A program made the position numbers and the translations under genes. Shown one piece after another: positions 3,640 to 13,152 of a stretch of 64,000 bases of DNA (position 1 is its first letter; each line of letters begins with the position of its first letter). The notes beneath the pieces were generated by a model. The model made no database searches, was not told the origin of the DNA, and was given only the letters and a program-made list of their open reading frames with translations. The DNA is from Dictyostelium discoideum (lineage: Eukaryota), in contig CM000150.2 of assembly GCA_000004695.1 (NCBI GenBank), positions 3,264,001 through 3,328,000 of the forward strand, in the 5' to 3' direction.

Positions 3640-4805
3640 ATTAGATATACTTCAGGAATTGCTTCTGCAGTCCAAGGTGCCCAAGCAGCTGGTATTTCTA
3701 CAATTGATCTCTATGCATTCTTATGTAATCAATGGTAGGATAATAATAATAATAATTATTTATTTATTTTTATTTTCTTTTTTCCTAATCTTTGTTTTTT
3801 TATTTTTTTATTTATAGCTCAGGTAATAGTCCATCATCTTCAGCAATCCAAAGTATTGTATCTCAACTTCAAAATGATGGTGTTTCATACAATATGTTAT
3901 GGATTGATGTTGAACAATGTGATGGATGTTGGGGTGATTTAGGTGACAACGCAGCATTTGTTCAAGAAGCCGTTGAAACTGCCCAAAATCTTGGTGTAAG
4001 TTTATAATACTATATTAATGAATATTATAGTGTCGGGGGAACTCAGGAGAGGAATAGAAAGAATTGAGATTTTAAATATTGGTAATGGATTTCAATTAAC
4101 CATAGGATACAATTTTATTATTTTATTATTTTATTATATTATTATTTTATTATTTTATTTTTTAAAGGTTAATGTTGGTGTTTACAGTTCAATTGGTGAA
4201 TGGAGTCAAACTGTAGGTAATTTAAGTGGTTTAGGTGTTGACTTATGGTATGCTCACTATGATAATAATCCATCATTCTCTGATTCAAGCTTTTATGAAT
4301 TTGGTGGTTGGACTTCACCAACTATGAAACAATACGCTGGTAATGGAAATGAGTGTGGTGTTAGCGTTGATATGAATTTCTTTGGTTCTGGAACATGTTC
4401 AGCATCAACTGGTTCAGGTTCAGGTAAATTTTTTTTTCTATTTTTTTTTTTTTTTTTATTCTTTTTTTAAAAAAAAATTACTAACCATAACAACTCTTGG
4501 TAATCAGGCTCATCATCAGGTTCATCATCAGGTTCATCATCAGGTTCATCATCAGGTTCAGGTTCATCATCAGGTTCAGGTTCATCATCTGGTTCATCAT
4601 CAGGTTCAGGTAAATTTTTTTATTTTTATTTTTATTTTTATTTTTATTTTTATTTTTTTTTTTCTTCTTTCGGCAAACGATTACTAACCGCAGCAACTCA
4701 TTACCACCATCAGGATCAGGCTCATCATCATCAGGATCAGGCTCAGGTTCAGGTTCATCATCAGGCTCAGGTTCATCATCAGGATCGGGATCAGGTTCAT
4801 CATAA
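3307..4805 (+). CDS. GH25-family (Entamoeba/Chalaropsis-type) lysozyme with signal peptide and C-terminal Ser/Gly-rich tail; 7 exons (3307..3397, 3458..3542, 3645..3734, 3818..3995, 4168..4423, 4508..4609, 4714..4805)
   Basis: Signal peptide MNKLISLLLVCLVAIALVNA; motifs 'MLWIDVEQCDGCWGD' and 'VDLWYAHYD' typical of GH25 catalytic domain; all introns GTAAAT/GTAAGT/GTAGGA...AG, phases hand-checked; last two exons encode (GSSS/GS)n repeats, stop TAA 4803..4805. Confidence 0.7.
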
Positions 4806-4904
4806 GCAGTTGAATTGGATGTTAAATAAATTTTAAAATTTAAAAAAAAAAAAAAAACAAGGATTATTACCAATTTTTTAAAATTTAAAAAAAGTACATC
4901 TTTG

Positions 4905-5845
4905 AATGTTGAAAAATAAAAAAAAAGTTAAAATATAAACAATATTGAATAGTAATAATTTTACTTTTATTTTTTTTTTATTTCATTATTTTATAATAAT
5001 TATATTTTTTTTTTTTTTATTTTTTTAAAATAAAAAAAAATAAAATAATAGGATAGGATTTGCAATTAAGCAGTCCAAACCTTAAGATTTGAAGTACCAA
5101 TATTTGTAATTGTTAATCTTCCACCACCAAAACTTCTACTGAATTGACCTTTGCTATGAATATCATTATCTTCATCAGGACTTAATCCACATTGAAATCT
5201 TACACGTCCATTTCCACCTCCAACAACTTCAACATTAACTTGAGTAGATCTTGGCCATGCCCATGTTGGAACGCCACTTACTTGACTACCACTATTGATA
5301 TAATACGGACTAATTTAATTTATTTAATGATAAAAAAAATAAACTATTAATATAATAAAAATATTAATTTAATTAAATAATTATAATTATAATTTACCCT
5401 GCCATTTTTTTAAATTTAATAATATTTTAGTTTATTTAAAAAAAAAAAAAATTCTTTATATAAAAAAAATAATTGAAAATGTTTGTTAATTAATTAAATA
5501 ATAATGATAATAATAATAATAAAAAAAAAAAATAAATCTATTTATTTTCATACCAACAAAAAAAAAAATTAAAAAAATAAAATAAAATAAAATATCTTCC
5601 CAAACATGTGGACCTTTGATTTGTGTTTTAAAAAGAAAATGAGTGTTAATGAAATAAAAAAAAAAAAAAAAAAAAACTTGGCTATTTGTTTTTTTATTAT
5701 TTAATTTTATTTAATTGTTACTTTTTTTTTTTTTTTTTTTTAACAATTGAAATAAGGTATATAGTTATAAGATTATATCTCTTCAAATAAATTAACTTTC
5801 AGAGATTATTAAATTTAACAAATTGAATTGAATTAAATTGAACTT
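4905..5845. repeat. Copy A of ~0.93 kb direct segmental duplication (copy B at 8256..9190), >90% identical by eye, contains a complete small gene plus its upstream flank
   Basis: Long collinear identical stretches e.g. 'gttaaaatataaacaatattgaatagtaataatttt', 'ttgcaattaagcagtccaaacctta', 'cttggccatgcccatgttggaacgccacttacttgactaccactattgatataata', 'ataaggtatatagttataagattatatctcttcaaataaattaactttcagagattattaaatttaacaaattgaattgaattaaattgaa' present in both copies. Confidence 0.9.
5066..5405 (-). CDS. Small 88-aa protein, paralog A (exons 5398..5405 and 5066..5309): MAGPYYINSGSQVSGVPTWAWPRSTQVNVEVVGGGNGRVRFQCGLSPDEDNDIHSKGQFSRSFGGGRLTITNIGTSNLKVWTA; family not recognised
   Basis: ATGGCAGG|gtaaatt...aaattag|TCCGTAT; 8-nt first exon then 244-nt exon in phase, TAA stop at 5066..5068; identical architecture in copy B. 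Confidence 0.55.
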
Positions 5846-6164
5846 TTATTTTTTTTTTTTTTTTTTTTTTTATTTTTTTTTTTATTTTTTTATTTTTTTT
5901 TTTTTGGTCTAAGTACAGTTTCACAACTTGGTCTACGTTTGTATTCACAATGATGATCAAAAGTCTTGAGTAATAATTCTGACGTTGTTGCTGAACTGAA
6001 ATTCAATGATTCTACTTAAAAAAAAAAAATGAAATTTTAAAAAAGACAAGATAATAATAAAAATAATTAAAAAAAAAAATAGATTTATTTTTTTATTTTA
6101 TTATATATATACATATTTTTTATATATATTGTAATTTAACTAAATTGAAACAAAAAATATTAAA

Positions 6165-7230
6165 TTAATTTAAATACGGTATTGGAATTAAATCAATTCT
6201 TTGTTTGAGAGCATAAAGGTCAATAGTTAATGGACGAGCATTTGCTGGTGGATTTGGAAAGAATAAAGAGTTTGGTTGAATGGTAATGGTGAAGATTGGA
6301 TTATTTGGTGTATTATTTGGTGTATTATTATTATGTAAAAAACCTGTAATTGGTGTTTGTTGATTTGATAATCTTCTATATTTATTTATATCACGTGCTG
6401 TAAATCCTTCAGAACCAAATGAAATAATTGCTGATGGATTGACAATACTAACACTACCATCAAAAACAACTAAACAAAACTTTTTTAAATTACTAACACC
6501 TAAAGGCCATAATTGAAGTAAAAAAACTATGTTTACATCAGTATCAAAATAATCGGTACATTTGTTGAATGATTGAGTTTTAGTTTGTGCTTTATAATTT
6601 ACTTCAAAGATTAATAAAACACGTCTTGGATATTGACTTGGTACACTTTCATAGCTTCCATCTGGATTATAAACTGTATTCTCATCAATAACAAGATCAG
6701 AACTTCCTGAACCAGTAATATGACCTTGAGCTCTGCAATAAATTGATATTAATTCATTCATTTCAAATACTACTCTTCCATGATATACTGATTCACTTAA
6801 TTTATTAATTATTACTAAACCATTTAATAAAAATGCATTTTTATTATAACTATGATCATTTAAAAAAGTTTTTGAATTTATATTCTTTTGAACTACAAAA
6901 CCTTTATAACCATATTTTAAAAGTTCAATATTCTAAATTTATTATTTAAAAATAAAAATTATTAATAAAATTAATATTTAATTTATTATTATTAATTTTA
7001 ATTAAACAACTTACATTTCTAATAAAAATTATTTTCTCTTCGTTGGGTCCCATTTTTGTAATATCTAAATATCTTAAATTGTTCATTTTGATGACACGAT
7101 GTGAAGGAATTCCATTGACTAAATCATCTTCTACCTTTTCTTTTTCATAATCTGAATTATTTTTTTTAAATTTTGAAAAAAATTTCATTTGTGTATTTGA
7201 TCTATTTTCAAATCCAATAGAAGATATCAT
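6165..7230 (-). CDS. Hypothetical 327-aa protein, 2 exons (7015..7230, 6165..6932); no family recognised
   Basis: ATG at 7230 (MISSIGFENRSNTQMKFF...); donor gtaagt after ...IIFIRN (7014..7009), acceptor aaatttag at 6933/6934; exon 2 continues in phase 0 into ORF 6165..6761 (…MNELISIYCRAQGHITGSGSSDLVIDENTVYNPDGSYESVPSQYPRRVLLIFEV…PYLN*). Confidence 0.55.
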
Positions 7231-8007: not shown

Positions 8008-8255
8008 CTAATGAAAATTGATATTAATATATGTTTGAAAAAAATAAAGATTAAAAAAAAATAAAAAAAAAAACACACATTATTTTTTTATTTTTATCAC
8101 ATATAAACAAATAATGTCATTAAATAATTTAATTAAAATTTATAAAACAACACAAACTCAAACCATTTTTGAGATACAATTGCATCAACAGTATCAAAAA
8201 ATATTGGCATTAAAATGGGATTGGCAACAATCTATTCAATTGAAACGATTGAAAA

Positions 8256-9190
8256 TGTTGAAAAATAAAAAAAAAAAGTTAAAATATAAACAATATTGAA
8301 TAGTAATAATTTTATTTTTTTATTTCATTATTTTATAATAATTATATTTATTACTTTTATTTTTTTTTTTTATTTTTTTAAAATAAAAAAAATAAAAAAT
8401 AATAGGATTGGATTTGCAATTAAGCAGTCCAAACCTTAGGATTTGAAGTACCAATATTTGTAATTGTTAATCTTCCTCCACCAAAACTTCTTCTGAATTG
8501 ACCTTTGCTATGAATATCATTATCTTCATCAGGACTTAATCCACATTGAAATCTTACACGTCCATTTCCACCTCCAACAACTTCAACATTAACTTGAGTA
8601 GATCTTGGCCATGCCCATGTTGGAACGCCACTTACTTGACTACCACTATTGATATAATATGGACTAATTTAATTTATTTAATGATTTAAAAAATAAAATA
8701 TTAATATAATAAAAATATTAATTTAATTAAATAATTTATATTATAATTTTTACCCTGCCATTTTTTTAAATTCAATAATATTTTAGTTTTTAAAAAAAAA
8801 AAAAAATTATTTATATAAAAAAATAATTGAAAATTTTTGTTAATTAATTAAATGATGATAATAATAATAATAAAAAAAAAAAAAAAAAACTATTTATTTT
8901 CATACCAACAAAAAAAAAAATAAAATATCTTCCCAAATATGTGGACCTTTGATTTGTGTTTTAAAAAGAAAATGAGTGTTAATGAAATAAAAAAAAAAAA
9001 AAAAAAAAAACTTGGCTATTTGTTTTTTTATTATTTAATTTTATTTAATTGTTACTTTTTTTTTTTTTTTTTTTTTTAACAATTGAAATAAGGTATATAG
9101 TTATAAGATTATATCTCTTCAAATAAATTAACTTTCAGAGATTATTAAATTTAACAAATTGAATTGAATTAAATTGAATATTTAATTAAA
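8256..9190. repeat. Copy B of the ~0.93 kb direct segmental duplication (copy A at 4905..5845)
   Basis: See copy A; differs by small indels in oligo(A/T) runs and scattered substitutions. Confidence 0.9.
8420..8761 (-). CDS. Small 88-aa protein, paralog B (exons 8754..8761 and 8420..8663); differs from paralog A by 2 amino acids (S->R, L->P near C-terminus) plus synonymous changes
   Basis: Same ATGGCAGG|gtaaat...attag|TCCATAT structure; stop TAA at 8420..8422. Confidence 0.55.
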
Positions 9191-9836: not shown

Positions 9837-10160
9837 TTTAAACAAACAAAAGTGGGAGGTTTTCTTTTGTGGTTAACAGATCTGTTGCCGTTGAACTACA
9901 ATTTTTTTTTTTTTTTTTTGTTTTTTAAAAAAAAAAAATGAAAAAAAAAAAAAAATATTAAAAAAAATAATTTATCATTTTTTGTGTGTCACCACTTTTT
10001 TTTTTTTTAATTTCCTATTTTTTTTTTTTTTTTAAATTTTTTATATTTCATTATTTTTAATTAACTACTTTATTTATTTTTTTATTTTATTTCTTTTTTT
10101 TTTTCTCAAAAAAAAAGAAATAAAGAAATAATTAATATCTACATATTTTATAGATATCAT

Positions 10161-10204
<44 letters not shown>

Positions 10205-10208
10205 AATA

Positions 10209-13152
10209 ATGAGAAAATTAGTAATATTAATTATTTTATCAATTGTGTGTAGTTTATTTATTGGATCGATTGAATCAGTAGATACTAGTAAATTTAAGAC
10301 TTGTAAAGATTCACACTTTTGTAAAAGAAATAGAGTTTCACATGAAGTTGGAGTAATGAATGAAATGAAATCCAAACAAAATTTTAACATTGTAGAAGGT
10401 TCAATTAAATTGGTAAAGCAAGAGAATACCATTTACTTTGATTTACAAGAACAAAATCAAAAGAGTAATCTATTAACAATGAAACTTGAAATCTATGAAG
10501 GAGGTATCGTAAGAATGAGAGCTCAAGAAAAAGAACCATTATTGAATAAGCAACGTTACCAAGTTCAAGATGTTTTATTGGATACAATTAAAACCGTACC
10601 AATTCAATGGAAACAAGAACCTTCAAAACAATCAAACACTTTTTCATTTAAACATGGTGAAAAGGAGTGTTGTTATGTATTAGTACAATTGGTACCATTT
10701 AAATTGGATGTTTACATTATGAATGAATTGGCAATTACAACCAATAGTGATAATCTATTCCATTTCGAACCAATCTCTGATAAACCACAACCATTACCAC
10801 CAAAAGAAAAAAAATCTGAAGAAGAGAATAAAGAAGCTAATCAAGAAGAAGATAATAATAATAATAATAATGATAACAATGAAGAACAACAAGTTAGTAC
10901 AGAAGGTTATTGGGAAGAAAGATTTGGATCACATCAAGATAGTAAACCAAATGGACCAATGTCAATTGGTATGGATTTCACATTTGTTGGTAGTTCACAT
11001 GTTTATGGTATTCCAGAGCATACTACTCGTTTATCATTAAAATCAACCACTGGAAATGGTATCAATGAACAACCATACCGTCTTTACAATTTAGATGTAT
11101 TCGAGTACGAGATTGATAAAACCATGGCATTGTATGGTCATGTTCCATTAATGATCTCTCATGATACTAAAAAAACAGTTGGTGTATTTTGGTTGAATGC
11201 AGCTGAAACATTTGTCGATATCGAGGATGTAACCACACCAGTATCACCATCAAAGAAAACTCATTGGATTAGTGAATCTGGTATTATCGATGTATTCTAT
11301 TTAACTGGTCCAACACCATCAACAATCTTTAAACAATATGCATATCTAACTGGTACAACTGCATTACCACAAATGTTTTCATTGGGTTATCATCAATGTA
11401 AATGGAATTATAAAGTAAGTTACAATAAAAAAAAAAAAAAAAAAAATTATAATAATAATAATAATAATAATAATAATTAATAAAATACTAATATTATTAT
11501 TATTTTTTTTTATTAAAAATTATTAGTCAGAAGATGATGTTAAACAAGTTGATAATGGATTTGATGAAAATCATATTCCATATGATGTAATTTGGTTAGA
11601 TATTGAACATACAGATGGAAAGAGATATTTCACTTGGGATAATAATAATTTCCCAACACCAGCTGATATGCAAAATATTATTGGTGCTAAACATAGAAAG
11701 ATGGTTACAATCGTTGATCCACATATCAAGAGAGATAACAATTATTATGTTCACTCTGAAGCAACTTCAAAAGGTTATTATATAAAGAATAAGGATGGTA
11801 ATGATTATGATGGTTGGTGTTGGCCAGGTTCTTCATCTTATTTGGATTTCACTAATCCAGAGATTCGTAAATGGTGGGCAACTCAATTTGGTTATGATAA
11901 ATACAAAGGTTCAACACCAAATCTTTACATTTGGAATGATATGAATGAACCATCAGTATTCAATGGTCCAGAAGTATCAATGCATAAAGATGCCAAACAT
12001 CATGGTGGTTTCGAACATCGTGACGTTCACAATCTCTATGGTTACTACTATCATATGGCATCGGCCGATGGTTTGGTTCAAAGAAATGCCGATCAAAATG
12101 ACCGTCCATTCGTTTTATCTCGTGCATTCTATGCTGGTTCTCAAAGAATTGGTGCCATTTGGACCGGTGATAACTCTGCCCAATGGTCACATCTCGAAAT
12201 TTCAAATCCAATGCTTTTATCAATGAATTTGGCCGGTATAACATTTAGTGGTGCCGATGTTGGTGGTTTCTTTGGTAATCCAGATGCTGAACTCTTAACT
12301 CGTTGGTATCAAGCTGGTGCATTCCAACCATTTTTTAGAGGTCATGCCCATTTAGATTCACGTCGTCGTGAACCTTGGTTATTCAATGAACCATACACTA
12401 CCATCATTAGAGAGGCAATCGTCAAACGTTACTCTTACCTTCCATTATGGTATACCACTTTCTATCAAAATACACTCAATGGTGCTCCAGTTATGAGACC
12501 ACTTTGGGTTCAATATCCAAAAGAAGCCAATCTCTTTGATGTTGATGATCATTATTTAATTGGTGATTCACTTTTAGTTAAACCAGTCACTCAACAATCT
12601 TGTAAAACTATGAAAGTCCTCTTACCAGGCCAAAGTGTCAATGAAATTTGGTATGATGTTGATACTGAGAAACCAATCAATGCTGGTGTCATCGAAATTG
12701 ATACTCCTTTAGAAAAGATTCCAGTTTATCAACGTGGTGGTTCAATCATTTCAAAGAAAGAAAGAGTTCGTAGAAGTACCTATCAAATGAGAGATGATCC
12801 ATACACTATTCGTATCGCTTTGGACTCTTCAAAATCTGCTCAAGGTCAATTATACATTGATGATGAACACTCTTTTGATTATAAAAAAGGTAAATTCCTC
12901 TACAGACAATTCACTTTCAAAGATAATGTTCTCTCATTTTCTGATGCCTCAAATAAAAGCTCAACCTCTTACAAACCAAATGTTACCATTGAAAAAATCG
13001 TTATCCTTGGTGTTCAAAAACCTCACTCGATCACTTGTAACATTACTGGTAAAGAAAAATTATCATTTGAATATGATTCAACTCTTTCAAAACTAACAAT
13101 CAGAAAACCAGATTTATTAGTTGATACTGATTTTATTATAAAATTAAATTAA
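10209..13152 (+). CDS. modA: Glucosidase II alpha subunit (neutral alpha-glucosidase AB, GH31); 2 exons 10209..11414 and 11527..13152; signal peptide present
   Basis: GH31 signatures 'WNDMNEP' and 'GADVGGF'; near-collinear similarity to GANAB across both exons (e.g. 'DVIWLDIEHTDGKRYFTWD', 'WCWPGSSSYLDFTNPE', 'WYQAGAFQPFFRGHAH', 'PVYQRGGSII'); donor GTAAGT at 11415, acceptor tattag at 11526; symbol modA is by analogy with the Dictyostelium glucosidase II gene. Confidence 0.9.

Follow-up and report, generated by a model that had tools for sequence, protein, structure and literature searches.

In a 64,000-nucleotide (nt) stretch of the Dictyostelium discoideum genome (assembly GCA_000004695.1, contig CM000150.2, positions 3,264,001 to 3,328,000 of the forward strand; hereafter the window), two small and nearly identical genes, here called copy 1 and copy 2, raise the question of whether they are real, to which family their product belongs, what that product might do, and how the locus came to carry both. 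The overall best explanation, to which we assign a probability of roughly 0.55, is that they are annotated, duplicated DUF8244 genes, that they truly code for protein, and that the protein is a non-enzymatic binding module. Both the genes and the family are already catalogued, and the finding is in that respect not new.

The gene model was read directly from the sequence. At positions 5066-5405, where the original prediction had seen a canonical intron and a stop codon, lies a two-exon minus-strand gene, and the peptide quoted in that prediction is the exact spliced product of copy 1. Its length had been given as 88 amino acids (aa); the product has 83 aa, and 88 is the length of the intron in nt. 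The second copy that had been claimed was found at 8761-8420 on the minus strand, and a tblastn search with the copy 1 product returned one further copy in the 64-kb window (8662-8423, minus strand). The copy 2 product is identical to that of copy 1 at 81 of 83 residues, the changes being S60R and L78P. Copy 1 has the start context AAAAAAATGG, and its 8-nt exon 1 is kept both in copy 2 and in GCA_054859385.1, a divergent D. discoideum assembly.

Both products are on record under exact sequence matches, copy 1 as DDB_G0295751 (C7FZX4, XP_002649196) and copy 2 as DDB_G0270604 (Q55DG4, XP_646167), each annotated as "hypothetical protein" on D. discoideum AX4 chromosome 1 (4,923,596 bp). In the gene table of assembly GCA_054883475.1, the exact copy 2 product bears the tag PF26736:DUF8244 (E <= 1e-5), and a protein search recovered four Dictyostelium homologs at 67-78% identity, all tagged PF26736.1. 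More distant relatives from bacteria and algae bear this tag too. Since copy 1 differs from copy 2 at only 2 of 83 residues, it is counted in PF26736 together with the tagged copy. Members of this family have a common length of about 80 aa and the motifs (M)AGP[YWF] (at the N-terminus), IPTW, QAGxSPxE, FxRxFGG, and VxNxG, and the chain stops with a C-terminal strand. The window genes show no substantive difference from this description, with the shared motifs and the single-domain architecture of about 80 aa in both copies. Counts of residue conservation were taken throughout from an alignment of 44 sequences, in which P17, T18, T25, G44, E49, R61, G65, and N72 are each conserved in 38-43 members; all eight residues are present in both copies. 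Judged by sequence, both copies are thus ordinary members of Pfam PF26736 (DUF8244). The family had been described as unrecognised, a description overtaken by the Pfam entry and by the dictyBase and UniProt identifiers that both genes hold. A clear match to a known family, which the original prediction took to count against it, exists in name through the DUF8244 tag and leads to a family without a known function; because no function has been assigned, membership is mechanistically uninformative. The single Cys (C43) that had been highlighted falls in a column occupied by Ala in 34 of the 44 members. Pfam-A scans of the product, the four close homologs, and the 44 aligned members gave nothing consistent, the Pfam-A version scanned being one without a PF26736 model. 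Matches to DUF6406 and DUF5126 were isolated and below threshold, and they were rejected.

One reason for doubting that the genes exist at all lies in the open frame itself. An 81-codon open frame, taken alone, is expected by chance about 6 times per 64 kb at the base composition of the window, which is strongly AT-rich (13-35% GC in 2-kb windows), and this count would favor a spurious open reading frame or annotation artifact. Set against this, exon 2 forms a sharp GC island (36.5% GC versus 3-4.5% in the introns and 8-12% in the flanks), and its identity to the syntenic ortholog of Dictyostelium citrinum (88.9%) exceeds that of the intron and flanks (about 70%). Between D. citrinum and copy 1, the coding sequence has a nonsynonymous divergence (dN) of 0.094 and a synonymous divergence (dS) of 0.228, with a ratio (omega) of 0.41. 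Both copies and GCA_054859385.1 share the position of the intron, the short start exon, the TATA box, and the T-run some 50 nt upstream. Significant homologs extend from bacteria to algae, one of them (P0036) coming from a transcriptome, and the AlphaFold2 fold is confident. Because the GC island, coding constraint, conserved structure, homologs, and predicted fold all point the same way, both copies are shown to be genuine protein-coding genes, as had been proposed, and the artifact reading, whose probability we put at practically nil, is effectively refuted.

AlphaFold2, supplied with an alignment of six sequences, returned a model with a mean predicted local distance difference test (pLDDT) score of 92, a predicted template modeling score (pTM) of 0.79, eight beta-strands, and no helix, so that the all-beta fold suggested earlier is now a high-confidence prediction. 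The predicted fold is a generic, small, compact eight-stranded jelly-roll beta-sandwich without a signal peptide. Conserved positions comprise P17, T18, W19, T25, G44, E49, R61, F63, G64, G65, N72, and T82, along with alternating hydrophobic residues in the strands. Neither the single protein nor the family profile gave a significant match in searches of PDB sequences, where a de novo protein scored best (E 0.01). Some structural neighbors are carbohydrate- or collagen-binding sandwiches, namely Cry5B, an arabinoxylanase carbohydrate-binding module (CBM), and the ColG collagen-binding domain (CBD). GOLD domains (p24/TMED) and the MG domains of bacterial alpha-2-macroglobulins belong to large membrane or secreted proteins, share 10-13% sequence identity with DUF8244, and have no linking Pfam match, and their likeness is one of common fold class only. 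The beta-gamma-crystallins resemble the DUF8244 protein in being small, all-beta, and Gly-rich; neither Greek-key motif pairs nor a match to Crystall (PF00030) was found. The fold is not that of a beta-gamma-crystallin, and the term "crystallin-like" is not supported.

A minimal cupin-type metallo-enzyme with catalytic activity was also considered. Small cupin or double-stranded beta-helix (DSBH) proteins (cupin_2 5j7m, de novo DSBH 6e5c, and CENP-C/Mif2) have no sequence similarity to DUF8244, and Foldseek E-values to cupin-type folds exceed 1e-3. Unlike cupins, DUF8244 has no conserved His/Glu metal site: no His or other metal-ligand set is conserved across the alignment, and the only His of the window protein (H54) is variable. 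Cupin Pfam families gave no match at E <= 10 or at E <= 1 in the scans made. Because no such ligand set is conserved, the protein is most unlikely to be a catalytic cupin, and this alternative is close to refuted.

To delimit the family, 1.84 billion representatives were searched exhaustively at E <= 1e-3 with a profile built from six sequences. The search found 43 family proteins (representatives at 50% identity), one of which, P0005 (2305 aa, with 29 partial matches to profile positions 7-41), was set aside as a repeat-driven false positive. On this evidence, DUF8244 is a small and patchily distributed family. D. discoideum has at least five DUF8244 genes, including DDB_G0269702, DDB_G0286957, and DDB_G0287047, which resemble the window genes in length (82-83 aa), single-domain architecture, and MAGP start, and which occupy other loci; their identity to the window genes is 65-67% for DDB_G0269702 and 41-44% for DDB_G0286957 and DDB_G0287047. 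The latter two form a 99%-identical pair on the 5.45-Mb chromosome of D. discoideum, and this second near-identical pair in the same genome suggests that recent duplication or conversion recurs in DUF8244. Dictyostelium purpureum has at least four DUF8244 genes, and D. citrinum, Dictyostelium firmibasis, and Heterostelium album have one each, the D. firmibasis relative (P0002) not being syntenic with the window.

Members outside this group are scattered. The Acytostelium subglobosum member has a signal peptide, that of Pseudonocardia xinjiangensis has a secretion leader, and that of the glaucophyte Gloeochaete is a transcript. The family also reaches filamentous cyanobacteria: when a single genome of each prokaryotic species was scanned with a tighter subgroup of the members, further ones appeared in Microseira, Microcoleus, Limnoraphis, and Hydrococcus, as well as in a Caldilineales metagenome-assembled genome. 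One further member lies on a plastid-bearing eukaryotic contig with a Tic22 neighbor, and a lipoprotein-like bacterial member adjoins a sigma-54 two-component system. Almost every member is a stand-alone protein of 80-90 aa, and in those that bear a leader, the N-terminus of the mature protein falls at the (M)AGP[YWF] with which leaderless members begin. The only domain fusion among the 43 representatives is P0017 (249 aa), in which a TIR_2 domain (E 6e-10, 40.1 bits versus a cut-off of 28) lies N-terminal to DUF8244. In Microcoleus (L015 5337-5735) and Limnoraphis (L016 5454-5795), a conserved small protein with a signal peptide is encoded directly after DUF8244; the versions of the two genera are 60% identical, and it was not seen in the other genera.

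For the function of this protein, we tentatively propose, at distinctly less than even odds, a non-enzymatic soluble binding module. The conserved polar residues T18, T25, E49, R61, N72, and T82, together with the aromatic W19, would form a ligand- or partner-binding surface. The module would be cytosolic in D. discoideum, whose form lacks a leader, and would act outside the cell wherever a leader peptide is attached. The non-enzymatic character is suggested because no cupin-typical constellation of His, Cys, or acidic residues is conserved.

Two other roles were weighed against this proposal, each of which we regard as unlikely. A lectin-like or immune/defense protein would recognize glycans or microbial patterns, acting as a stand-alone effector in amoebae and as the sensor domain of TIR immune proteins. 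Such a role would accord with the TIR_2 domain of P0017, which scores above the Pfam cut-off, with the carbohydrate- and collagen-binding sandwiches among the structural neighbors, with the existence of secreted forms, and with a multi-copy family that evolves fairly fast (omega about 0.4) and varies in copy number; the TIR fusion and the CBM-like neighbors are weak hints that make a recognition or defense role possible. Bacterial members were not found in defense clusters, PADLOC gave no DUF8244 match in six members and only a weak score for the TIR part of P0017, NCBIfam and PHROGs had no match to the domain, and lectin and CBM Pfam families had none to the protein. In the conflict systems of multicellular prokaryotes, effector-associated domains sit in conserved neighborhoods of nucleoside triphosphatase (NTPase) and vWA genes (PMC7159879); a link to these systems was rejected, as no NTPase/vWA neighborhoods occur at DUF8244 genes. 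About equally possible is an oligomerization or scaffold module, in which the jelly-roll would dimerize or pentamerize and chaperone or bridge partners in the manner of the CENP-C/Mif2 cupin or the nucleoplasmin core. This comparison scores no better than comparisons with unrelated sandwiches and has no sequence relationship behind it, and secreted bacterial forms fit poorly with a chromatin or chaperone role. More speculative still, and in our view improbable, is a horizontal exchange of DUF8244, as a ligand-sensing jelly-roll, between social amoebae and bacteria of filamentous or multicellular habit (cyanobacteria, Chloroflexota, and actinomycetes). The domain would then serve on its own as a recognition protein, cytosolic or secreted, and also as the sensor of TIR immune proteins, and the flux in copy number at this locus would reflect an arms race with bacterial prey or pathogens.

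Returning to the preferred reading of duplicated, coding DUF8244 genes with a binding role, several points weigh against it. The binding-module idea, proposed with low confidence, draws on absent catalytic motifs and generic fold neighbors, and the conserved residues could be purely structural. The TIR fusion comes from a single metagenome contig of 918 nt from the Joint Genome Institute (JGI), and bacterial gene neighborhoods are not conserved, consisting of unrelated housekeeping or regulatory genes that give no functional clue. An exact-product look-up of contigs returned no record for the copy 1 product and found the copy 2 product only in a genome assembly, with no intron-less transcript contig. 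Full-text literature searches returned no paper on the five D. discoideum gene identifiers, the D. purpureum identifier, the UniProt accessions, PF26736, or DUF8244. Lastly, the relaxed constraint suggested for copy 2, taken up below, draws on one substitution and one other lineage (about 9-13% diverged).

How the locus came to hold two copies can be traced through its flanks. The genes lie in two blocks of about 950 bp that are direct repeats around an unrelated gene, DDB_G0270600. By blastn, the blocks are 92.1% identical over 966 columns with indels counted; with substitutions only, identity is about 97% overall, the intron having the lowest value (93.2%) and the 5' flank (97.1%), exon 2 (98.4%), and the 3' flank (98.7%) all lying higher. 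The D. citrinum contig JBTAPK010000053 is collinear with the window in reversed orientation at a DNA identity of about 83%, with a shared order of a C2/WW protein, glucosidase II alpha (GH31), Sen15, DUF8244, and two further genes. At this syntenic locus, D. citrinum has one DUF8244 gene and lacks DDB_G0270600, whose ortholog (P0196) sits some 220 kb distant on this contig, beside a cellulose-synthase-like gene and with no DUF8244 gene adjoining. Because of this distant position, DDB_G0270600 is indicated to have relocated in the D. discoideum lineage.

Assembly GCA_054859385.1 (L007), labeled D. discoideum, shows about 85-92% DNA identity to the window, and its divergence of about 9-13% from AX4 is unusually high within one species. 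It has Sen15, the DDB_G0270600 ortholog, and a single full DUF8244 gene, which occupies the position of copy 1. In the interval between Sen15 and DDB_G0270600, the copy-2 block is represented by its two ends, about 300 bp from the distal 5' part and about 60 bp from the 3' side, with only about 24 bp between them; a clean deletion of about 590 bp has removed the promoter and body of copy 2 (L007 7402-7427 versus window 8315-8906). Because both ends of the block are kept, the comparison indicates that the two-block arrangement predates the split between AX4 and GCA_054859385.1 and that the latter subsequently deleted the body of copy 2. The upstream segments are 87.5% alike between the two of GCA_054859385.1 and 96% alike between the two of AX4, and the AX4 copies are nearer to each other than either is to the copy of GCA_054859385.1; from these relations, the simplest reading is that gene conversion in the AX4 lineage made its copies 97-98% alike. 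Assembly GCA_054883475.1 (L017) shows 0 mismatches to the window over 3.3 kb; it is of the same strain lineage and provides no independent evidence.

At residue 78, 41 of 44 members have Leu, Ile, or Val, and copy 2 alone has Pro. This change and the loss in the sister lineage make it probable that copy 2 is redundant and that constraint on it has relaxed. The idea that two copies reflect a dosage-sensitive function does not hold up well: copy number varies among close lineages, with one copy in D. citrinum and copy 2 deleted in GCA_054859385.1, which argues against dosage sensitivity, and copy 2 carries its unique Pro.

The history of annotation at the locus calls for some caution with databases. 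An obsolete 438-aa gene model (P0197) joined DDB_G0270600 to exon 2 of copy 1, and this fused model placed both 83-aa proteins in a 90% cluster under an unrelated 327-aa representative, DDB_G0270600, with the result that a standard search misses the self-match. In D. citrinum, the annotated product of the DUF8244 ortholog (P0001) starts with MTITS, from an exon upstream of the conserved TATA box and T-run (L001 ~9990-10390). At the conserved start position, this species has ATGTCAGGGGTATT, one G too many for the D. discoideum ATGxxxGG|GT splice. The discrepancy may stem from a fault in assembly or annotation, or the N-terminus may really have changed.

Upstream of each gene, several elements could serve in expression, and their coordinates are collected with those of the other features in the table below. 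The TATA box and T-run of copy 1 are conserved in copy 2, GCA_054859385.1, and D. citrinum. A TATA box followed by oligo-dT is the usual arrangement of Dictyostelium promoters, and by this analogy the box and T-run form a putative core promoter. About 185-220 nt upstream of each ATG lies a GC-richer element, AACACAAATCAAAGGTCCACAT(G/A)TTTGGGAAGATATTT, kept in both copies and in both upstream segments of GCA_054859385.1. In D. citrinum, a core of about 27 nt is retained with 1 mismatch and a 1-nt indel by alignment count, amid flanks that are about 70% identical. At the distal end of each block, both arms of an inverted repeat (ATCTCT-N18-AGAGAT) are retained in D. citrinum with a diverged loop. 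The repeat could form a hairpin, conceivably one that signals the 3' end of Sen15, the upstream gene, or it could be a palindrome that binds a protein. A convergent neighboring gene ends in a Ser/Gly/Asp-rich repeat (tcaggatcaggctca...; window 4600-4810, plus strand). Scanning the duplicated block for Rfam families and tRNAs gave no match, and sub-threshold Rfam matches to C/D-box snoRNAs were rejected as chance products of that coding repeat.

Table. Features of the two DUF8244 genes and their surroundings (positions are those of the window).
Feature	Position	Strand	Basis and remarks
Copy 1 (DDB_G0295751) exon 1, ATGGCAGG	5405-5398	minus	Direct reading; codes Met-Ala and the first two bases of Gly3
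Copy 1 intron, 88 nt, GT..AG (GTAAAT...TTAG)	5397-5310	minus	4.5% GC; position and phase same in copy 2 and GCA_054859385.1
Copy 1 exon 2, with TAA stop at 5068-5066	5309-5066	minus	Translation; residues 3-83, the entire predicted DUF8244 jelly-roll domain
Copy 2 (DDB_G0270604) exon 1, ATGGCAGG	8761-8754	minus	Direct reading; product an exact match to the annotated protein
Copy 2 intron, 90 nt, GT..AG	8753-8664	minus	3.3% GC
Copy 2 exon 2, including TAA stop	8663-8420	minus	4 nucleotide differences (copy 1/copy 2): 2 synonymous, at P4 (CCG/CCA) and G65 (GGT/GGA), plus S60R (AGT/AGA) and L78P (CTT/CCT)
Copy 1 putative core promoter	5438-5462	minus	TATATAAAG box 5462-5454, T14 run 5451-5438; ~50 nt upstream of ATG
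Copy 2 putative core promoter	8792-8817	minus	TATATAAAT 8817-8809, T15 run 8806-8792
GC-richer upstream element of copy 1, AACACAAATCAAAGGTCCACATGTTTGGGAAGATATTT	5590-5627	minus	Candidate cis-regulatory site
GC-richer upstream element of copy 2	8923-8960	minus	Candidate cis-regulatory site
Inverted repeat ATCTCT-N18-AGAGAT, distal end of each duplicated block	5777-5806, 9113-9142	minus	
Duplicated block 1: ~446 bp 5' flank, gene, and ~160 bp 3' flank	4905-5851	minus	blastn
Duplicated block 2	8254-9187	minus	blastn
DDB_G0270600, 327 aa, two exons (~7230-7013 and 6931-6165)	6165-7230	minus	Exact protein mapping; no Pfam domain; outside the DUF8244 family

As it stands, the finding is of small importance, the genes being in the reference annotation and the family being catalogued as a DUF. 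Residual interest attaches to the unexplained function and odd phyletic distribution of DUF8244. The locus also offers a worked example of a segmental duplication of about 950 bp around a gene that appears to have relocated, with gene conversion as the simplest reading in one lineage and deletion of a copy in another. For a family without a literature of its own, a confident fold assignment together with a phyletic map could guide a first experiment.
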